A stretch of DNA of 37,179 bases from a virus, in the IMG/VR virus record IMGVR_UViG_3300045988_036825, positions 1 to 37,179 of that record. One strand, 5' to 3'. A model generated the notes under the pieces. The model had not been told where the DNA came from, did not search any database, and worked only from the letters and a program-made list of their open reading frames with translations. Both the position numbers and the translations under genes were made by a program. Shown piece after piece: positions 2,875 through 37,179 of this stretch. The stretch's first letter is position 1. The number at the start of each line of letters is the position of its first letter.

Positions 2875-5265
2875 ATGGAAAAATACACCTTATCGCTCGC
2901 AGGTTCTTCGGCGTCTCTGAAATGGAAGGCGGTGCGCCTCACATGGGACGATTTTGTAAAACGTTTAGGTACGCCCGTTATCACTAACGAAACGGTACGC
3001 GAGTACGATAAATTAGACAAGCCTGCTAAATCTTCTTTGAAGGACGTAGGCGGATTCATGGCGGGAGAGCTTTCCGGATCGCAACGCCTTAAAAAGGCGG
3101 TCATGTCTCGCACAATGATAACGCTAGACATTGACTTCGCCGATGATCTTTTCCCGATTGATTTCGAGGACCGTTTTCACGGATACGCGGCGGTTATATA
3201 TACAACGCGTTCGGATAGACCGGGAGCGCGCCGTTACCGCCTTATCATGCCTTTCAAGGAAGAGGTTACGGACGTTGTTATGTACGAGGCGGCAGCGCGC
3301 AAAGTAGCCGAGTTGTTAGGTATTGATCTATTCGACAAAACAACGTTTCAACCGGAACGCATGATGTACTGGCAGTCCCTTTCAAAAGATCAAACCGGAC
3401 TTTTCGAAGTGTTCGAAGGAGAACCGATCAGCGCGGAGTATCTAATAGGTTTGTACGGAGACAGTGAAGAGTGGCGAGACGTGCGCAACTGGGCTTTCCA
3501 TTCGGACACAGACCGGGAGACAAGAGCGATAGTTAATAAGGAGATGGCAAAAGACCCTAGAGATAAAGAGGGTTTAGTAGGCGCGTTTTGCCGCTCATAC
3601 ACGATACAGGCAGCAATAGAAAAATATCTATCAGACGTTTACACGGAAGTAGACAACGGACGTTATACCTATGCCCTTGGATCGGGTGCGGCTGGTTTAG
3701 TTGTGTATGACGATGTACTTTGTTTTTCCCATCACTCAACCGACCCGATAGGAGACGGACACGCTTATAACGCCTATGATCTTGTACGCGTTCACAAATT
3801 CGGGCACCTTGGTAAGGAAGACAGTACTCGCGAGATGAACAAGCTAGTTTGCGCGGATAAGGAGTGCGTTAAAGATATGGTAGCCGTGGACGATGATCTA
3901 ACCGACTTCGAAGCATATGACGAAGAAGTAAAGGCAGACGCGCAGACCGCCGCCGAACTTGTTTGGGACTTGGATAAGAAGGGCGATAAAATGTGCACCG
4001 TCCGTAACTTTGTTAACGCTTTCAAGTGTGATCCACTATTAAACGATCTGTTAGCTTATGATTTGTTTCTTGATACAATAGTGTACACCCGCACGCCGTT
4101 CTTCTCGAATGACATCAAGAAGGGCGATATGCTGGACGACACAGCAGTAGCGATTATCCGTGGACGTATAGAAGATTTGCACGGTATTTATAATGACAGC
4201 AAGCTAACCGACGCGCTGGAAAAGGTTTGCAGTGAAAACGCTTTCCATCCTATCAAAAAATATCTAGAGGCACAAAGGTGGGACGGTGTGAAACGTATTG
4301 ATAATTTCTTAGCTGACTACATGGGTGCGAAGCCTAGTATATACGTTTCCGAGGCGTTCCGAAAAATGTTAGTCGCCGCGGTTGCTAGAGTGTACGAACC
4401 AGGACGTAAATTTGATACGGCGCTTGTCATGTATTCCGGGCAGGGCGCGGGAAAGTCCACGCTTATACAGTCCCTTTCAAAAGGTTGGTTTAATGATTCA
4501 TTAACCGACATATCCGGGCAAAAAGCATACGAAGCGATACAACATGCTTGGATCGTGGAGCTAGCCGAGTTATCAGCACTTCGCCGTTCGGACGTGGAAG
4601 CCACAAAGAACTTTATCAGCAAGCGGGAAGATACATATCGTAGCGCATACGCCCGCCGCGTCAAGACGCACAGGCGTCAATGTGTGTTCTTTGGGTCTAC
4701 CAATGATGATGAGTTTTTGAAGGACAAGACCGGAAACCGCCGTTTCTTTCCTATCGAGGTACGCGCCAATAAGAACACGCACAGGCTATTCGAAAAGTCA
4801 TTCGAGAAAGTGGTAGACCAGCTTTGGGCCGAGGCGATGGAGTTGTACATGTGCGGGGAAAGTCTTATCTTATCCGATGAAGCGGAAGCGATTGCAAGTG
4901 AAGGCCGCGAAGAATTTACAGAAGAAAGTCCTCTAGTAGGTATTATTGAAAACTACGTGGACAGGCTTTTCCCGGCTGACTACGAAGAGCGCACCGAACA
5001 GCAACGCGCCGACTTTCTATCGGGCGGTCTGGGCGAGATAGGCGACATGGTTAAAAACGAGTTCTGTTTAATGGAACTTTGGGTGGATGCGCTGGGACGC
5101 CGTAAAGAAGATTATACCAGCGCGAAAGGTCGCGAATTGTCCACAGCGATGCGACAAATGAAAGGTTGGTACAAAGGAAAGTTAAAAAGAACGAAATTGT
5201 ACGGCCAACAAGTAGTTTATATCCGTAAAGGAAGCGAAGAAAGCAAAAAATTATTATCTTTGTGA
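2875..5265 (+). CDS. Primase-polymerase / VirE-type (D5-like) primase-helicase
   Basis: N-terminal acidic motif ITLDIDFADD and AVIYTTRSDRPGARRYRLIMPF (prim-pol-like). Walker A SGQGAGKST and Walker B-like WIVELAEL in the C-terminal half, as in virulence-associated protein E family NTPases. Confidence 0.85.
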   Translation: MEKYTLSLAGSSASLKWKAVRLTWDDFVKRLGTPVITNETVREYDKLDKPAKSSLKDVGGFMAGELSGSQRLKKAVMSRTMITLDIDFADDLFPIDFEDRFHGYAAVIYTTRSDRPGARRYRLIMPFKEEVTDVVMYEAAARKVAELLGIDLFDKTTFQPERMMYWQSLSKDQTGLFEVFEGEPISAEYLIGLYGDSEEWRDVRNWAFHSDTDRETRAIVNKEMAKDPRDKEGLVGAFCRSYTIQAAIEKYLSDVYTEVDNGRYTYALGSGAAGLVVYDDVLCFSHHSTDPIGDGHAYNAYDLVRVHKFGHLGKEDSTREMNKLVCADKECVKDMVAVDDDLTDFEAYDEEVKADAQTAAELVWDLDKKGDKMCTVRNFVNAFKCDPLLNDLLAYDLFLDTIVYTRTPFFSNDIKKGDMLDDTAVAIIRGRIEDLHGIYNDSKLTDALEKVCSENAFHPIKKYLEAQRWDGVKRIDNFLADYMGAKPSIYVSEAFRKMLVAAVARVYEPGRKFDTALVMYSGQGAGKSTLIQSLSKGWFNDSLTDISGQKAYEAIQHAWIVELAELSALRRSDVEATKNFISKREDTYRSAYARRVKTHRRQCVFFGSTNDDEFLKDKTGNRRFFPIEVRANKNTHRLFEKSFEKVVDQLWAEAMELYMCGESLILSDEAEAIASEGREEFTEESPLVGIIENYVDRLFPADYEERTEQQRADFLSGGLGEIGDMVKNEFCLMELWVDALGRRKEDYTSAKGRELSTAMRQMKGWYKGKLKRTKLYGQQVVYIRKGSEESKKLLSL

Positions 5266-5326
5266 CACAAAACTTTCTTTTCTAATTTTTAAGGTTAATA
5301 CTTTTAGGGTGGTTTTTTTCAGTTAA

Positions 5327-5362
5327 AAAGGCTTTCGTAGTGATACGCGAGCCTTTATTTTT
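5327..5362 (+). terminator. Rho-independent terminator ending the early/replication transcription unit
   Basis: AAAGGCTTTCG / CGCGAGCCTTT stem (one internal mismatch) with 8-nt loop, followed by ATTTTT. Lies in the 206-bp gap after the primase gene. Confidence 0.5.
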
Positions 5363-5376
5363 GTTAATATCACAAA

Positions 5377-5423
5377 GTTTTTTCCGAAAACGTTTGGTAG
5401 TTCAAAATAAAGCCGTACCTTTG
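5377..5423 (+). promoter_or_regulatory. Consensus Bacteroidota promoter cassette (copy 1 of a 47-bp repeat)
   Basis: TTTG at 5393..5396, 19-nt spacer, TACCTTTG at 5416..5423. Matches 34707..34753 at 46/47 positions. Confidence 0.7.
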
Positions 5424-5471
5424 CTTTCACAATAACCAATTAAAGTATTAACCAAATAAAGTATTACAGTT

Positions 5472-7781: not shown

Positions 7782-7812
7782 TTTGGTAGTCTGATAAGCA
7801 GTCGTATCTTTG
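7782..7812 (+). promoter_or_regulatory. Bacteroidota-type promoter (TTTG-N19-TATCTTTG)
   Basis: TTTG 7782..7785, 19-nt spacer, TATCTTTG 7805..7812, in the gap after the VRR-NUC gene. Confidence 0.65.
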
Positions 7813-8189: not shown

Positions 8190-8621
8190 ATGAAAAAGTT
8201 AGTAAGTATTTTAGCAGTAATTTTGTTATCAGTTAGCGCGATGGCGCAAGTATCAACCGCAAGTGGAAGCCTAAAGACGCTTAAGTCGTTCCGGATGGGA
8301 ACGTGCAAGATCGTGGAGGTTACGAAGGGCGAGGCGGTAACGTACCAGATCACCGGACAGCTGGCCGGGACTAGTTCCCTAGAAATGGATATAGACCTAG
8401 GCGACGCGGAAGCAGCGGTTAAGACACTCTTAAGCCTAGCCGAGTACAAACCGTCAAGTAGCAACGAGATCGTACACCTTAACAACCCGGCGGGACATAC
8501 CGCGCGTTTCCCAAAGATGGCGGGTGTGTGGCAGATATTCAGCCCCGGCAATCAGTTCACCGTTAACATCTCACGTAGCGAGCTTAAGAAGATGGCGGAA
8601 GCAATAACCGATAATAAGTAA
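8190..8621 (+). CDS. Hypothetical secreted protein (cleavable signal peptide)
   Basis: N-terminus MKKLVSILAVILLSVSAMAQ is a classical signal peptide with an A-x-A-type site and no lipobox Cys. Confidence 0.6.
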   Translation: MKKLVSILAVILLSVSAMAQVSTASGSLKTLKSFRMGTCKIVEVTKGEAVTYQITGQLAGTSSLEMDIDLGDAEAAVKTLLSLAEYKPSSSNEIVHLNNPAGHTARFPKMAGVWQIFSPGNQFTVNISRSELKKMAEAITDNK

Positions 8622-8625
8622 GATA

Positions 8626-9054
8626 ATGGAAGTATATAGAAACAACATCGGTCAATTGTTGAAAGTAATAAGAGCCCAAAACGGACGGATCATAACGATT
8701 TGTGGGAAGGAAACAAAATGCGGAAAGGAAACGGAGAGTTTCGAGAACGAAAAGCAATTCAACGTGCACCTGTATAACAAAGGTTTTCACCTTGCAATGA
8801 CAGACCGCGCCACACTGTTTGCGCGCCGCTACGAAGAAGCCGGGGACTTATCAACGTTTATTGATATGATCCCCAACAAAGAGTTAGCCTTTCAGAAAGA
8901 CGGTGCGATTTACACATGCTGGTTTTTAGCATTCAAGCCTAATGGTATGGTAGAGGTTAAGGCCAATACGGATTTCTCGTACACGAACGAACTAGGATAC
9001 AAGGCGGTGACATTAAACATATCGGATTTAATTGTAATTCAGGGAGATATTTAA
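8626..9054 (+). CDS. Hypothetical protein (142 aa)
   Basis: ORF track entry, tightly packed with neighbours, no recognisable motif. Confidence 0.6.
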   Translation: MEVYRNNIGQLLKVIRAQNGRIITICGKETKCGKETESFENEKQFNVHLYNKGFHLAMTDRATLFARRYEEAGDLSTFIDMIPNKELAFQKDGAIYTCWFLAFKPNGMVEVKANTDFSYTNELGYKAVTLNISDLIVIQGDI

Positions 9055-9056
9055 TT

Positions 9057-9485
9057 ATGGTAGAATTCAACAAGAAACTTAAAATAGATCGCATCAATCT
9101 ATTTTGTGATGTGGTCACGAAGATGGCGAACGGCACTCCCGCCGAGGGTTACACGATAGGAGACGCTATCAAACGATTACCAGAAAACCTGCAACAGTAT
9201 CTAATATCAGAAGTGCCAGATAGCATACTACGAAGGGAGTACAGCCGCCGGGAACTTCATAAAGGCGAGGGCGTGGTATTCGAAGGGGCTGACACGGTGG
9301 CCGAGGTTTACAAGGAAGAAATATTTAACGCTAACCGGGCGGGAGCCGTGAAGGACTTGCTAGGGATTAAATCACGGTTCCCCGATATACTGGACGTGAT
9401 CGAAGAAGTACTAAAGTGTTTTCCGGAGCGGTACACGCTAGATGATATTTACGATATGCTGTATAAAAAGGATTTGGGCTTATGA
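9057..9485 (+). CDS. Hypothetical protein (142 aa)
   Basis: ORF track entry. ATGA overlap with the downstream gene. Confidence 0.6.
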   Translation: MVEFNKKLKIDRINLFCDVVTKMANGTPAEGYTIGDAIKRLPENLQQYLISEVPDSILRREYSRRELHKGEGVVFEGADTVAEVYKEEIFNANRAGAVKDLLGIKSRFPDILDVIEEVLKCFPERYTLDDIYDMLYKKDLGL

Positions 9486-13239: not shown

Positions 13240-13779
13240 ATGCCGACACCATACGTTAAGAAGAAACAGAGAAGGGTTTTATTAGTTGAGGACATGGCAC
13301 GCGTTTATAATCTTCATGCGTTCTTCATCTTCAACTGGCTCGAGGCGAACGGCGTGAAGTACGCCAAGGTGAAAGGCAAACCGTTTCACATGGTTAACGC
13401 CGAGATATTCTGTGGGGCTGTCCGGGATATAATGTACGCGGCAAGCAAGGTACGGGACGACCGTAATACGCGGATGCAACCGGAGCGAATACCAACAATA
13501 GAAAACATGCTATATCGTGACAAGGACAAGAAGCGCATAGGGCCCTACGAAAATGATGACATAGAGCGCCCGATCTATCCGAGCAAAGACACCGAGACGA
13601 ACAAATACGGCATAGAGGTTTCAATGCTGTACAGGGTGAATATGTACTGTGACGGTAGCAGGACACTAGACAAGTTGAACCACCGTACTTTGAGATGGGA
13701 GACCATAGAAAGGGCGGAGAAACGGAAATGTAAAGATATTTTGGACGACTGGAAAGTTCTATACGGGTTGATTATGTAG
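13240..13779 (+). CDS. Hypothetical protein (179 aa), last gene before the late-operon control region
   Basis: ORF track entry. The basic N-terminus (PYVKKKQRRVLLVEDMARVY) could be DNA-binding, but I recognise no family. Confidence 0.6.
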   Translation: MPTPYVKKKQRRVLLVEDMARVYNLHAFFIFNWLEANGVKYAKVKGKPFHMVNAEIFCGAVRDIMYAASKVRDDRNTRMQPERIPTIENMLYRDKDKKRIGPYENDDIERPIYPSKDTETNKYGIEVSMLYRVNMYCDGSRTLDKLNHRTLRWETIERAEKRKCKDILDDWKVLYGLIM

Positions 13780-13786
13780 GAATTGA

Positions 13787-13819
13787 GGGGTTAATGTATA
13801 AAAACGTTAATCCCTTTTT
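13787..13819 (+). terminator. Rho-independent terminator ending the second transcription unit
   Basis: GGGGTTAA (13787..13794) pairs with TTAATCCC (13807..13814), including one G-U pair. 12-nt loop, then TTTTT (13815..13819). Confidence 0.6.
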
Positions 13820-13949
13820 GTGTTAAATTTGTTAACATGCTTCTGACGCACTTCGGAAAAAACTTTGTGAGAGAAAACTTTTTAGAGAAAATGTTCGAAT
13901 TTAACTGTATTTTAACTAAAAAGCGTGTTTTTGACAAAAAAGTAGCCAA

Positions 13950-14335
13950 ATACATCTTTTACATTGCCGTTTCATCTTTTACACCCAACCAGCTCCACAG
14001 GACGCAGAACGCACTTTTCAAGTTTTTGATGTAAAAGATTAAAATTTGTATCTTTTACACCTAACTTGCTTATTCATAGTACTTTATACTGTAATATAGT
14101 GTATTTGTAAAAGATGTAAAGATGATTACTATAGAGTACCTTTTAAAAAGAAGAAATATAGTTAACATAAATATACTATTGTTATTTTAAATAATTTATT
14201 TCGTCTTTTTTTTTATTTTACTCTAATAGAGAAACTATCTTTTATCTTTTACAATTGGCGATTTTCGCCCGTAATTTACTGATACGCAATTAGTTAGGGC
14301 GTAAAAGATGATATAATTCTATCTTTTACACTAAA
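13950..14335. promoter_or_regulatory. Iteron module A: eight copies of ATCTTTTACA / TGTAAAAGAT
   Basis: + orientation at 13954, 13974, 14050, 14244, 14321. - orientation at 14030, 14106, 14301 (9/10 match). Coordinates are the first base of each 10-mer. Confidence 0.8.
14030..14124. repeat. 95-bp conserved core, copy A (93/95 identical to 34360..34454)
   Basis: Aligned by eye. Only two substitutions (CACCTAAC vs CACTTAAC, TATTCATAG vs TATTTATAG). Contains the inverted pair TGTAAAAGAT-N10-ATCTTTTACA. Confidence 0.9.
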
Positions 14336-14411
14336 AACGGCTTATTTAGATAAAGTGCTGTGTTTGAATCAGTTAGCGCACATTTTACGGATTACATAGG
14401 CGTACAGGGCA

Positions 14412-14439
14412 TTTGAGACGGGCGAAATGATTACTTTTG
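14412..14439 (+). promoter_or_regulatory. Candidate late promoter with sub-optimal spacing (TTTG-N16-TACTTTTG)
   Basis: TTTG 14412..14415 and TACTTTTG 14432..14439, 23 nt upstream of the TerS ATG. The spacer is 16 nt instead of the usual 19-21. Confidence 0.35.
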
Positions 14440-14462
14440 TACGGGAATGTAAATAAAATTAT

Positions 14463-15173
14463 ATGGCTACAGAGAAGAAACAGATAACAGAAACCACGAA
14501 GCCCGTGGAGCTTCCAAAGGAGAAGCCCGTACCGGAGGAAAGGGTTAAAGCGGCGTGCGGTGGTGGAGCGATCCGGCCGACGTACGCGTCCACGCAATAC
14601 CTCTCCGATTCGTTCGAGTGCACCCGATGTTACCAGCTGGCAACGCGCCGGTTCGGCAAAACGCCCGTATGGCAGGACCCCGCCGAGCTGTGGGAGGCCT
14701 ACGCGATTTACACCGCTTGGTGCGAGGCTACGCCCGTTATAGTGTACGAGCCGATAAAATCGGGACCGGCAGCGGGAACGCTATACGAGGTACCGAAGAA
14801 GCACCTTCAGAGCGAAAGCGAGTTTACGGCGTTCCTGGGGGCTGGGGTGAAGTACCTGCACGAACGCCGCAACACTTATACGAAGAACTTCGAGGAGTTC
14901 GGTTTGTCGGTATGCGAGGAGTTCGTAGAGACGATAGACCGCATACGCGCCGAGATCGCGGCGGACATGGATCAAGGGGCGAGCGTAGGGCAATTCGACG
15001 CACAATATATTAGGGCGCTACGCGGGATCAAGATGCAAATGGATTACACGTCTAACGGCGAAGCCATCAAGGGCGGTTTGACTGTGAACGTCACAGACCC
15101 GAAAGTGTCTGCAAGGATGGGAAAGCTGAAAGACTTCAAGAAGGACCATAAAGAAGAAGGGGAGAAGAAATGA
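14463..15173 (+). CDS. terS: Terminase small subunit (gp3-like DNA-packaging protein)
   Basis: Immediately upstream of and ATGA-coupled to TerL. DPAELWEAYAIYTAWCE...FTAFLG resembles the conserved N-terminal helix region of small terminases. Confidence 0.5.
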   Translation: MATEKKQITETTKPVELPKEKPVPEERVKAACGGGAIRPTYASTQYLSDSFECTRCYQLATRRFGKTPVWQDPAELWEAYAIYTAWCEATPVIVYEPIKSGPAAGTLYEVPKKHLQSESEFTAFLGAGVKYLHERRNTYTKNFEEFGLSVCEEFVETIDRIRAEIAADMDQGASVGQFDAQYIRALRGIKMQMDYTSNGEAIKGGLTVNVTDPKVSARMGKLKDFKKDHKEEGEKK

Positions 15174-30716: not shown

Positions 30717-31268
30717 ATGGAAAAAATTACAGATATAGGGCAAATAGTTTCATTGTGTCAAACAATGACTAACCTAAAATTGGATATTGCATGCGGTGCG
30801 GATCGTCTGTTTGCGCAACGTTGGTATGATGAACAGTACGCAACCGGGAAGCACACACGTTACGTAATGAAGCCGGGACTATTCATCAATTCGATCGAGG
30901 ACGGACGGGTGTACCGCGCTTTCAACACAAGCGATGAAAAAGCCGTTTACTTCATGGAATCAAACGAGAATTACAAGGACTATTTTATAGACTTGCAAGC
31001 AGAACCGGAAGCACCCGTAGAAGGTGATCCAGAACCGGAAGCACCCGTAGAAGGTGATCCAGAACCGGAAGCACCCGTAGAAGGTGATCCAGAACCGGAA
31101 GCCGTTCAAGTGATGGCAGCAGCCGAAGAGCCGGAACTATCAGAGGAAGAGATCGCAGCGGCTAAACGCAGTGAAGCGGCAAAAAAGGCAGCAGCCACAC
31201 GCGCCGCAAATAAAGCAGCAGCAGAAGAGGCAGCAGCCGCGGAGGGTCTTAAAGAGTTCGAAGAATAA
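30717..31268 (+). CDS. Hypothetical virion-module protein with a repeated EPEAPVEGDP linker and an Ala/Glu/Lys-rich tail
   Basis: ORF track entry. Contains the perfect 30-bp tandem repeat. Confidence 0.6.
   Translation: MEKITDIGQIVSLCQTMTNLKLDIACGADRLFAQRWYDEQYATGKHTRYVMKPGLFINSIEDGRVYRAFNTSDEKAVYFMESNENYKDYFIDLQAEPEAPVEGDPEPEAPVEGDPEPEAPVEGDPEPEAVQVMAAAEEPELSEEEIAAAKRSEAAKKAAATRAANKAAAEEAAAAEGLKEFEE
31000..31102 (+). repeat. Perfect 30-bp tandem repeat, about 3.4 copies
   Basis: AGAACCGGAAGCACCCGTAGAAGGTGATCC at 31001, 31031 and 31061, plus 12 nt of a fourth unit. No mismatch between copies. Confidence 0.95.
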
Positions 31269-34274: not shown

Positions 34275-34279
34275 CGCCT

Positions 34280-34665
34280 TTCATCTTTTACAAACGCATT
34301 TTCATCTTTTACACTCAAAAATTTAAAACGCTGATTCTTAACGAATTGGCGTTTTTGCATGTAAAAGATTAAAATTTGTATCTTTTACACTTAACTTGCT
34401 TATTTATAGTACTTTATACTGTAATATAGTGTATTTGTAAAAGATGTAAAGATGTTATATAGAGATAAAAACGGAAAAGTAATATAATCTATAAAATATG
34501 TAAATATATGAATTAATATGTGAATGAGTTTATGGAAATATTTTATTTTAAACTTTATAGAAAACGTCTTTCCATCTTTTACATTTTCCCGTTTTTGCCA
34601 CCTAACTATATGATATGCAACACGATAACCCGTAAAAGATGCGTTATTTCATCTTTTATACTGTT
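34280..34665. promoter_or_regulatory. Iteron module B: eight copies of ATCTTTTACA / TGTAAAAGAT
   Basis: + orientation at 34283, 34304, 34380, 34574, 34651 (9/10 match). - orientation at 34360, 34436, 34632 (9/10 match). Each site is 20,329-20,331 bp from its counterpart in module A. Confidence 0.8.
34360..34454. repeat. 95-bp conserved core, copy B
   Basis: 93/95 identical to 14030..14124. Confidence 0.9.
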
Positions 34666-34706
34666 ATCAAACCTCCAAAACAGTTAATCAGAGTTAAATT
34701 ACTAAG

Positions 34707-34753
34707 GTTTTTTGCGAAAACGTTTGGTAGTTCAAAATAAAGCCGTACCTTTG
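34707..34753 (+). promoter_or_regulatory. Consensus Bacteroidota promoter cassette (copy 2), probable early promoter
   Basis: TTTG 34723..34726, 19-nt spacer, TACCTTTG 34746..34753. Matches 5377..5423 at 46/47 positions. Confidence 0.7.
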
Positions 34754-34966
34754 TCACATCGAAAGAGAAATGAGAGCGCCGCCAATCGTAACCAAAGGGC
34801 GCGAGACGGGAAACACGGATGGTATCCCAGTTCATTTGAAAAGAAGGTGCGGTTTCCGCTTAATTGAAGCTATAAAGCCCGAATCTCTAACGATAAATAA
34901 CTGAAAAGCCGTAATAAACTTATTATCCTATTCCTAGACGGAGAACCGGATTAAATATTACTAGAT

Positions 34967-35302
34967 ATGGCAGAGATAAACATTTATAGATTAGAAGCGT
35001 TCTTTTACATGGTTATAACGGAGAGGATCAAGGCGTGCGAAACGATAGGAGAGGTCACGAATATATACGGCTATCCGGGTATTTCGGGAATGGTCTACAA
35101 AGATTTGCTACGAGAAGAAGAAGCCGGAAAAAAATTCAAATATAAAATTCGGGGCTTTATAATTCCACATGCCAAACGGTATGAGAGCATTTTCGAACAA
35201 GCCAGGAAAGCCGCATTTTCCGATCACGTTAAAACCTTTAGAGGATCTACTGGACTTAGTTTTAAATTCAATAAAAAGATGCAATGGAAAAAGTCGAGTT
35301 AA
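34967..35302 (+). CDS. Hypothetical early protein (111 aa)
   Basis: First ORF downstream of the early promoter. No motif recognised. Confidence 0.55.
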   Translation: MAEINIYRLEAFFYMVITERIKACETIGEVTNIYGYPGISGMVYKDLLREEEAGKKFKYKIRGFIIPHAKRYESIFEQARKAAFSDHVKTFRGSTGLSFKFNKKMQWKKSS

Positions 35303-35463
35303 TTACAGTTGCGGAAGCCGCCCGGATCGCCGAGGTTACGGAAAACGCGATACGCTATCAACTCAATTCGGGAAAGCTCACCCGATATGAGAACGGCGTA
35401 GGAAAAATCAGAGTGAACAAAAATGAGCTATTAGAAACAATTTTTAATTTTAAGAAAAAATGA
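35284..35463 (+). CDS. Small helix-turn-helix DNA-binding protein (MerR/excisionase-like HTH_17 type), not in the ORF track
   Basis: Translation: MEKVELITVAEAARIAEVTENAIRYQLNSGKLTRYENGVGKIRVNKNELLETIFNFKKK. The pattern L.T..EAA...GV....I...........Y..G..IR....EL is the classical excisionase-type winged HTH. ATGA-coupled to the next gene. Confidence 0.6.
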   Translation: MEKVELITVAEAARIAEVTENAIRYQLNSGKLTRYENGVGKIRVNKNELLETIFNFKKK

Positions 35464-35996: not shown

Positions 35997-37159
35997 TGGG
36001 ACACGCAGAAAGAGATCACGCGATTTTATCGCCAAGTAGCGCGAAACGATGGATTAATTGTACGCCATCGGCGCTACTTGCAGAAGAAGCGGGCAGCAGG
36101 TCAAGCGTTTACGCAGAAGAGGGTACACTAGCCCACGAAATAGCCGAATACGCTTTGACTAAATATCTGGAAGGCGAATACGATCCGATAATTGACGATG
36201 CATTGCCGTTGAAAAACGAACATCTTGAAAACCCGCTCTTTGGCGTAGACATGGCGGATTATATACGGAGCTATTGCGAGTATGTTATCGGAGAAGGCTA
36301 CGAGATGCAAAAACAGGACGGCGGGTGCCGGACGTTCCTAGAGCGTCAGGTAGACATTACAGACTTCGCGCCGGATTCATTCGGATCGGTAGACGTAACA
36401 CTTGTATCTGACAAGACGATACACATTATAGATTTGAAGTACGGAACGGGTGTCCGGGTGTCGGCTGACATGAACGAGCAAATGTTAATGTACGCTCTTG
36501 GAACCTTGAAAAGCCTGAAAACAGAACATATTGAAAAAATACGTATGACTATCGCACAAGTCAGATTAGACCATTACGACACGTTCGAGATGGATAAAGA
36601 GGATTTGTTAGCGTGGGCGGATAAGGTGCTAAGGCCCGCCGCAAAGATGGCGATACAGGGCATAGGAAAACAGGTTATCGGAAGTTGGTGCGGTTTTTGC
36701 CCGGTCAAAGCCCAATGCAGGGCGCAACGCGATGCAATACTCGCAGATTTCGAAGAAAAGCCCGAACCCTTGTTATTATCCGACGAGGAGATAGTAGACC
36801 TAATCGGCAAGATAGACACTTACAAAAGTTGGATCGAATCAGTTAACAAGTACGTCTATGATAGAGCGATACGGGGGCACAAATGGCCGGGATATAAGCT
36901 CGTGGCGGGTAGATCCAGCCGAGTTATCAAGGACGAGGCAAAGATACGCCAAGCGCTTCTAAACGAGTTCCTCGAGGACGAAGTTTTAAACATCAAGCTA
37001 AAAGGTATCGGAGACCTCGAAAAGTTGGTAGGCAAAAAGGTATTTAGCGCTAGATTTGGAGACGCAATCGAATCGAGACCCGGCGCACCAAAGCTAGTAC
37101 CGGAATCCGCTAAGGGCGTGGAATACAGCCCGCTTTGCGACTTCGACATAGAAGGATAA
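35996..37159 (+). CDS. Cas4-like PD-(D/E)xK exonuclease, DUF2800 family
   Basis: N-terminus HAILSPSSAKRWINCTPS. Core SVDVTLV...IHIIDLKYGTG (D...D-x-K). C-terminal Cys cluster WCGFCPVKAQC which, with the N-terminal Cys, is typical of the Cas4 4Fe-4S site. Confidence 0.85.
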   Translation: MGHAERDHAILSPSSAKRWINCTPSALLAEEAGSRSSVYAEEGTLAHEIAEYALTKYLEGEYDPIIDDALPLKNEHLENPLFGVDMADYIRSYCEYVIGEGYEMQKQDGGCRTFLERQVDITDFAPDSFGSVDVTLVSDKTIHIIDLKYGTGVRVSADMNEQMLMYALGTLKSLKTEHIEKIRMTIAQVRLDHYDTFEMDKEDLLAWADKVLRPAAKMAIQGIGKQVIGSWCGFCPVKAQCRAQRDAILADFEEKPEPLLLSDEEIVDLIGKIDTYKSWIESVNKYVYDRAIRGHKWPGYKLVAGRSSRVIKDEAKIRQALLNEFLEDEVLNIKLKGIGDLEKLVGKKVFSARFGDAIESRPGAPKLVPESAKGVEYSPLCDFDIEG

Positions 37160-37179
37160 CAGAAGTTAAAAAAAAAAAC
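37081..37179. repeat. Terminal direct repeat copy 2 (identical to 1..99)
   Basis: See copy 1. Confidence 0.95.

Follow-up and report, generated by a model that had tools for sequence, protein, structure and literature searches.

This study concerns two arrays of a short repeat, or iteron, in the virus record IMGVR_UViG_3300045988_036825 of IMG/VR, the whole stretch of which (37,179 bp) is called the window below. Bases 1-99 recur exactly at 37081-37179, hence a circular assembly of 37,080 bp, and the window is the genome of a circular Bacteroides siphophage. Its DNA is 83-85% identical to that of the isolated Bacteroides ovatus, koreensis and kribbi siphophages, such as BK687P2, BKO1-1, BK735P3, BKR1 and BO1. 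All plausible genes are on the + strand and leave only two large gaps, 13780-14462 (683 bp, the late gap) and 34275-34966 (692 bp, the early gap), each of which carries one array. We consider it probable that each array is an iteron replication origin of the type found in the pathogenicity islands of Staphylococcus aureus (SaPIs), read by the fused primase-helicase of the phage, and that this origin was duplicated and moved so as to head both the early and the late operon. The primase-helicase would read the iterons through its C-terminal winged-helix domain, would assemble on both sides of an AT-rich tract and then melt it, and would prime synthesis for the phage PolA. This proposal is built on what could be established directly, namely the arrays, how they are built and conserved, the helicase's homology and modelled fold, and the covariation of protein and sites.

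The iteron is the 10-mer ATCTTTTACA. Allowing at most one mismatch, it has 17 matches in the window against 3.10 ± 1.74 expected, a count that was not attained in any of 100 dinucleotide shuffles. Of these matches, eight fall in 13954-14330 and eight in 34283-34660; the last, TTCTTTTACA at 35000-35009, is the sole near match outside the arrays. A degenerate form, ATCNTTNACA, gives 13 matches versus 1.08 expected, every one of them inside the two arrays. These counts agree with a preliminary description of this DNA, which had placed the exact 10-mer only in the late gap and its twin. All eight late-gap sites named there exist. Exact copies are found on the + strand at S1 (13954-13963, a position kept in relatives), S2 (13974-13983), S4 (14050-14059, preceded by the block TTAAAATTTGTATCT), S6 (14244-14253) and S8 (14321-14330), and on the - strand at S3 (14030-14039, top strand TGTAAAAGAT) and S5 (14106-14115). 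The 9/10 copy S7 (ATCTTTTACG, - strand) occupies 14300-14309, one base to the left of the start first given. Pairs spaced by 20-21 bp are formed by S1 and S2 (direct, 20 bp start to start), S3 and S4 (inverted) and S7 and S8 (inverted, 21 bp); there is one clean direct pair per array and not two, as had been thought. The earlier layout had also overlooked two sites and the lowest-GC tract that splits the array. S5b (14115-14123, -; TGTAAAGAT) is a 9-nt iteron in tandem with S5, with one base common to both, and S6a (14237-14246, +; ATCTTTTATC) is a degenerate iteron that overlaps S6.

The early-gap array has exact copies at S1' (34283-34292, +), S2' (34304-34313, +, 21 bp from S1'), S3' (34360-34369, -), S4' (34380-34389, +), S5' (34436-34445, -) and S6' (34574-34583, +), 9/10 copies at S7' (34631-34640, -) and S8' (34651-34660, +; ATCTTTTATA), and the 9-nt S5b' (34445-34453, -; TGTAAAGAT). 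The late array thus totals 10 sites and the early array 9, in the order S1+, S2+, S3-, S4+, S5-, S5b-, then an AT-rich stretch, then (S6a+), S6+, S7-, S8+, i.e. six sites to the left of the AT tract and three to four to the right. The AT-rich spacers, of ~113-120 bp, are located at 14124-14236 in the late gap, where the tract is the presumed DNA-unwinding element, and at 34454-34573 in the early gap. They contain the two lowest-GC 100-bp segments of the genome, 14142-14241 and 34465-34564 (15% GC each; the next has 21%), and both of these fall exactly between the left and right site sets. The sites that touch the tract have opposite orientations, with S5 and S5b (-) immediately on its left and S6a and S6 (+) immediately on its right. 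A core of ~103 bp spanning S3 to S5b (14022-14124) is 97% identical to its paralogue at 34351-34454. The two arrays are 20,330 bp apart on the 37.08-kb circle. The late gap had been taken for the longest non-coding stretch of the genome; it is the second-longest, after its 692-bp twin.

To follow the arrays in relatives, 23 copies from the late and early gaps of 12 genomes were aligned. The positions and orientations of the sites, first described from this window alone, are kept across the 23 copies. The 15-mer TTAAAATTTGTATCT is invariant in 23/23, S5b is likewise kept in 23/23, and S6a recurs at the same alignment position. The consensus across copies is looser than the 10-mer, roughly ATC-w-TT-b-ACA, with variation at bases 4 and 7; unusually uniform arrays are those of this window and of two metagenomic relatives. 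DnaA boxes were rejected by eye, as the freely varying iteron base 7 corresponds to the invariant C of TTWTNCACA. A small RNA or hairpin in the 103-bp core was rejected too: by eye on the 23-copy alignment, its variable 16-nt segment keeps no hairpin across copies. A scan of IMG/VR with the small terminase (TerS) provided five loci only.

Both arrays are present in every complete relative examined, and the iteron drifts in both copies together across relatives, to ATCTTTGACA, ATCTATGACA or CATCTATCCA. In both arrays of BK687P2, most sites carry G as their seventh base. Two AT-split arrays are also retained by BC669P1 and BC679P4, B. caccae phages that are more distant, with sites ATCTATGACA / GTGACA. 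In BT401P3, a B. thetaiotaomicron phage whose helicase is 56% identical, both arrays are kept with the iteron CATCTATCCA, and 11 of the 16 genomic copies of ATCTATC are in its two gaps, on the minus strand to the left of the AT tract and on the plus strand to the right. The same two-array layout in BC669P1, BC679P4 and BT401P3 means that the architecture is old, and the concerted change of the iteron within a genome points to a phage-encoded reader. It has to be considered whether the arrays are merely conserved linkers between modules, with no function other than to let related phages recombine by homology. They do lie at the early/late and middle/late module junctions, and copies of the 103-bp core, whether from different genomes or paralogous, share 85-98% identity. 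However, short oriented repeats, the AT-rich split, the concerted iteron change and the covariation with a helicase residue described below would all be left unexplained, and we regard this explanation as extremely improbable.

The proposed initiator is encoded at 2875-5265 (+). This 796-aa protein is a fused primase / VapE-type SF3 helicase ('PriRep'), with N-terminal primase matches in PHROG, a match to phrog_256, a helicase at residues ~386-711, and a winged-helix C-terminal domain (CTD) at ~721-796. The Pfam family PF05272 (VapE-like) is found at residues 464-682 (E=3.8e-76). A phmmer search of the PDB matched residues 386-711 to 7pds_A, SaPI1 Rep (E=7.6e-74). Residues 600-796 were modelled with AF2 from a 24-sequence alignment, with a pLDDT of ~90 over residues 689-789. 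The modelled CTD consists of a strand (729-731), two helices (732-739 and 749-761) and a beta-hairpin (765-784), and by this topology (beta-H-H-beta-hairpin) it models as a winged helix. In a Foldseek search with the model of residues 600-796 the top six matches were 7pds chains over ~200 columns, and the weaker matches that came next (E >= 0.07) were mostly winged-helix DNA-binding domains, Orc/Cdc6 among them.

The structure 7PDS is that of SaPI1 Rep with DNA bound (PMC9371898). SaPI Reps are self-loading initiator-helicases whose C-terminal winged helix reads iterons of 5-6 nt, and in SaPI5 the primase and Rep are fused (PMC9371898). Their origins have 6-12 iterons just downstream of rep with a central AT-rich region between them, and at least two iterons per side of that region, in opposite directions (PMC9371898). 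The motif of the window had been left unmatched to any described phage regulator site; it can be placed in this described class of Rep/iteron origins. At least two iterons per side of the AT tract, with opposite directions on the two sides, were also seen in BT401P3 and in the distant locus L066.

This last locus belongs to a set of distant helicase homologues that have their arrays beside the helicase gene and that lend independent support to the origin reading; many of them are located within large bacterial contigs. In loci whose helicase CTD is 35-37% identical, 10-12 copies of AAGTTACA/TGTAACTT are packed in ~350 bp, starting at most 20 bp past the end of the helicase gene. The array of L066 is split by a 12%-GC tract and has a tandem overlapping pair on the right, the same grammar as ATCTTTT-ATCTTTTACA in the window. 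Two other lineages have gene-adjacent arrays with TGTCAACC and GTAGCGGA. The loci with an array directly 3' of a VapE-type helicase gene, which is the SaPI placement, are L066-L092 (L066 10557-10892), L058 (10557-10822) and L079 (2666-3097), each with its own motif. Several of these gut contigs are 60 kb to 2 Mb long, so they are likely integrated elements.

Indirect evidence for the primase-helicase as the reader comes from the covariation of one of its residues with one iteron base. In an alignment of helicase C-termini, the genomes with arginine at position 778 are precisely the ones whose iterons carry G at base 7. Residue 778, the one following KLYG, begins the wing's second strand; in the window it is glutamine (CAA, 5206-5208, +, coordinates computed from the ORF start). 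For a wider comparison, 79 metagenomic loci were pulled around the helicase domain and scored if at least three clustered sites matched ATC-N-[AT]-T-N-AC-[AG]. This left 33 loci, 10 'G-rich' and 23 'G-poor' at base 7. Columns of the window ORFs seen in at least 15 loci were scanned, i.e. 3,162 variable columns and 5,441 Fisher tests. Arg778 was the top match and the sole perfect split ([[22,0],[0,9]]; p=5.0e-8, Bonferroni 2.7e-4), the next column having p=1.8e-4. No clean signal came from the corresponding scans of base 4, of base 5 or of a C at base 7 of the iteron.

The arginine is found on several different winged-helix backgrounds. In the close clade its codon is CGA, and the other codons seen at this position are CAA (Gln), GCA (Ala), GTA (Val) and TCG (Ser). 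In the second-clade loci L041 and L048, for which no array was captured, it is CGG, with CCG (Pro) as the alternative. In the close clade ATCTTTTACA is paired with Q/A/V/S and ATCTTTGACA with R; in the second clade ATCTATTACA is paired with P and ATCTATGACA with R. Genomes of the G type have G sites in both arrays. An arginine-guanine contact would be chemically natural, and judging from these sequences the helicase may bind its own iterons specifically.

Other proteins had been put forward as binders: TerS, a 59-aa HTH_17 protein (35284-35463) and a 179-aa protein (13240-13779). None of them is supported. The best column p was 0.0098 for the HTH_17 protein (20 loci), 6.4e-4 for TerS and 0.0035 for the 179-aa protein, and 0.0047 for a 111-aa protein. 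The 179-aa protein was rejected as binder, as it has no family match in Pfam or PHROG and no orthologue in BT401P3, which keeps both arrays.

The preliminary description had left open whether the sites were iterons or operators of a dedicated DNA-binding protein, and had judged them not to be a simple promoter. The latter view is upheld by the location of the promoters. The + strand was scanned with the full Bacteroides consensus TTTG-N18-22-TAnnTTTG, and complete matches are found only at 5393-5423, 7782-7812 and 34723-34753. The last is the canonical promoter of the early operon (TTTG-N19-TACCTTTG), 63 bp downstream of the early-gap array. A -7-type box, TACTTTTG, is present at 14432-14439 (+), 24 nt before the TerS start codon and ~100 bp downstream of the late-gap array. 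Given these positions, the promoters are outside and downstream of the arrays. The sites themselves were rejected as promoters of the host: a reading of S4 as TTTG-N20-TATCTTTT is possible, and in BK687P2 it is a perfect -7 box, but the G of TAnnTTTG is not conserved, and the scan places the promoters elsewhere.

The arrays could instead be operators or enhancers that switch the early and late operons, bound by a phage transcription factor such as the HTH_17 protein. All three lineages have this protein, whose gene is part of the early operon; both arrays are 60-100 bp upstream of early or late promoter elements, their paired sites are 20-21 bp apart, and the S4 of BK687P2 falls on a perfect TTTG-N20-TATCTTTG promoter. 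However, none of the HTH_17 columns follows the iteron variant, unlike helicase residue 778, which matches it perfectly. The middle promoter (5393-5423) is near-identical to the early one, yet it has no array. In addition, the sites do not overlap the promoters, which sit 63-100 bp outside the arrays, distant helicase homologues hold the same kind of array beside the helicase gene, and an AT-rich split belongs to the grammar of origins and not to that of operators. An operator function is unlikely on this evidence, and of the two terms first proposed it is iteron that agrees with the conserved sites and their concerted change.

The position of the late-gap array near TerS (14463-15173), whose start is 133 bp downstream, would also suit packaging (pac) sites recognised by this small terminase. 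Some pac sites are known to contain phased repeats, and the GenBank record of BKO1-1 begins inside the array. On the other hand, a near-identical second array is located 20 kb off, far from the terminase genes, and in distant relatives the arrays adjoin the helicase gene and not the terminase. The TerS columns correlate weakly, as is expected from linkage to the adjacent array. As for the BKO1-1 record (L001, PQ571266), it has an exact 141-bp repeat at both ends, inside the late-gap array (window equivalent ~13916-14057). The maximum k of MEGAHIT is 141, and for this reason we take the repeat as an assembler artefact, probably the overlap of a circular contig and not true genome ends. A packaging role is therefore very improbable.

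If the arrays are indeed bound by the primase-helicase, the next question is whether both of them fire. Satellite P4 reportedly needs an ori and a distant crr, each bound by its primase-helicase alpha. The present phage could have a similar bipartite origin, in which the helicase binds both arrays, one of them fires, and the other, brought close by a protein-mediated loop, acts as a cis enhancer (crr-like) or serves in pairing or copy control. Such an arrangement agrees with the occurrence of the same iteron in two separated regions, with the covariation of both arrays with residue 778 and with the retention of both arrays in every complete relative. A mild argument against it is that each copy holds the full module of left sites, 15%-GC tract and right sites, and no sequence mark designates either copy as auxiliary. 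We see this alternative as possible, though doubtful. A more speculative idea, to which we give a rather small chance, is that two complete helicase-loaded origins, nearly opposite on the circle and upstream of the early and late operons, also gate transcription through initiator binding or firing, or pair through helicase hexamers. If gating is true, late genes could for example be active only once the late-gap origin opens, and replication initiation and the early-to-late switch would be one physical device.

Several points weigh against two SaPI-type origins read by the primase-helicase. We infer the physical binding, the melting and the firing of the origins, i.e. the replication function itself. 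Both arrays are just upstream of operon starts, which is compatible with a transcriptional role. The GC skew rises monotonically, without an origin signal. No iterons were found directly 3' of the helicase gene (5266-5471), and the clade as a whole has nothing resembling an iteron behind this gene, the arrays being 7.6 and 8.5 kb off, and the iterons measure 10 bp versus 5-6 bp in SaPIs. Many sites of the relatives are quite degenerate. Regarding the covariation, the second-clade pairing of Arg with G, where arrays are available, comes from one sub-lineage (BC669P1 and BC679P4), and the late structural proteins, with too few loci, were outside the scan. Shared ancestry was controlled by comparison with all other columns only, and clade-structured phenotypes gave p values down to 1.5e-6 at unrelated columns. 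The statistic for residue 778 has to be tempered, because the base-5 scan indicates that clade structure alone gives p ~1e-6. With these reservations, two origins read by the primase-helicase remain in our opinion the probable explanation.

The gene map was built from the annotated BKO1-1 record and from our own family scans (Pfam, PHROG). The early block (34967 -> 5265, across the junction of the circle) encodes the HTH_17 protein, a DUF2800 exonuclease, a Gp2.5-like single-stranded DNA binding protein, PolA (869-2869) and the 796-aa primase-helicase. The middle block (5472 -> 13779) comprises VRR-NUC, an SNF2-type helicase, a methyltransferase and small ORFs, and the late block (14463 -> 34274) comprises TerS, TerL, structural genes and lysis genes; all three blocks are on the + strand. 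An Rfam scan of the whole window gave no match at the gathering threshold. The three adjacent ORFs of 142-143 aa at 8190-9485 are without paralogy by BLASTP. Within the ORF at 30717-31268, overlapping exact copies of a 43-nt repeat start at 31000, 31030 and 31060 (31000-31102, unit of 30 nt); they encode a short repeated peptide of a late protein, and a 63% copy is present at 31222. The last codons and stop of the helicase gene (5262-5273) read ATCTTTGTGACA, an iteron-like sequence with a 2-nt insertion that overlaps the conserved C-terminal LSL*. This may be a coincidence, or a relic of a gene-adjacent origin.

Other features are found around the promoters. A 61-bp promoter-bearing block (TTTGGTAGT...N...TACCTTTG) occurs twice, at 5363-5423 and 34693-34753, ahead of the middle and early operons, with 89% identity. 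The 18-mer CACAAAGTTTTTTCCGAA at 5371-5388 (+), a short way upstream of the middle promoter's -33 box, has an exact inverted copy at 13852-13869 (-), in the late gap ~85 bp to the left of iteron S1. Akin motifs, GAGAGAAAAGTTTT, occur repeatedly within the late gaps of both BC669P1 and BC679P4, and CACAAAGTTTTTTCCGAA/GAGAGAAAAGTTTT may be a second, separate protein-binding motif. Directly 3' of the last middle gene, at 13786-13822, a hairpin followed by a T-run (GGGGTTAATG...CGTTAATCCCTTTTT) was noticed by eye; it resembles an intrinsic terminator and would protect the late-gap array against read-through. In the untranslated early leader, which separates the promoter at 34723-34753 from the first gene of the early block at 34967, positions 34839-34917 are 79-85% identical to foreign phage non-coding DNA, from the larger, unrelated Bacteroides fragilis phages vB_BfrS_23, VA7, UZM3, BF702P1 and others and from B. 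uniformis EMB1/2. The RNA fold of the leader (34760-34966, 207 nt) is not more stable than that of shuffled sequence (z = +0.8), and it has no Rfam match.

Nothing relevant was found in the literature on replication origins of Bacteroides phages or under the names of these isolates. The human gut is rich in Bacteroides phages, of which isolates are available; the present analysis yields exact coordinates of proposed origins and a named candidate initiator for them. A putative specificity rule of one residue and one base, Arg778 with G7, could be tested by a single swap, and the arrays of L066-L092, L058 and L079 are a ready set for work on iteron and winged-helix specificity. The SaPI type of self-loading helicase and iteron origin would be extended from Gram-positive satellites to phages and integrated elements of Bacteroidota. 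It will be of interest to establish whether the conserved two-copy arrangement represents two origins or an origin and an enhancer. The arrays are also candidate minimal origins for phage-based Bacteroides vectors, and markers for grouping phages by replication specificity.

Among known systems, the SaPI origin (PDB 7PDS, 7OLA; PMC9371898) is the one that combines a homologous helicase (E=7.6e-74), a primase-helicase fusion as in SaPI5, and a C-terminal winged helix, here predicted from a model. It likewise has short iterons with a central AT-rich split and at least two per side in opposite directions, and a separate loader or initiator gene is not apparent in either case. The phage differs by its iterons of 10 bp instead of 5-6 bp, by arrays 7.6 and 8.5 kb from the helicase gene whereas the SaPI origin is directly 3' of rep, and by two full copies, each just upstream of an operon promoter; it is moreover a lytic-looking Bacteroides siphophage and not a Gram-positive satellite. 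The origins of theta plasmids (RepA/pi/TrfA) and of phage lambda (lambda O) also have initiator repeats that adjoin an AT-rich unwinding element, and there too the sites and the initiator co-evolve in specificity. In contrast to the system described here, their initiators are not helicases and recruit the host DnaB, and most of their iterons are repeated in direct orientation to one side of the AT tract; Rep or DnaA boxes of this kind are not seen in the phage. With satellite P4 the phage would share, by analogy, a single multifunctional primase-helicase with a C-terminal winged helix and one iteron in two regions that are kilobases apart on a small circular genome. The crr of P4 is, however, said to be strictly auxiliary and without a full origin layout, whereas both phage copies look complete. 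The class of origin is thus already known, and what is new is its probable occurrence in phages of Bacteroides, an iteron of 10 bp, and the conservation of two copies at a distance from the initiator gene.

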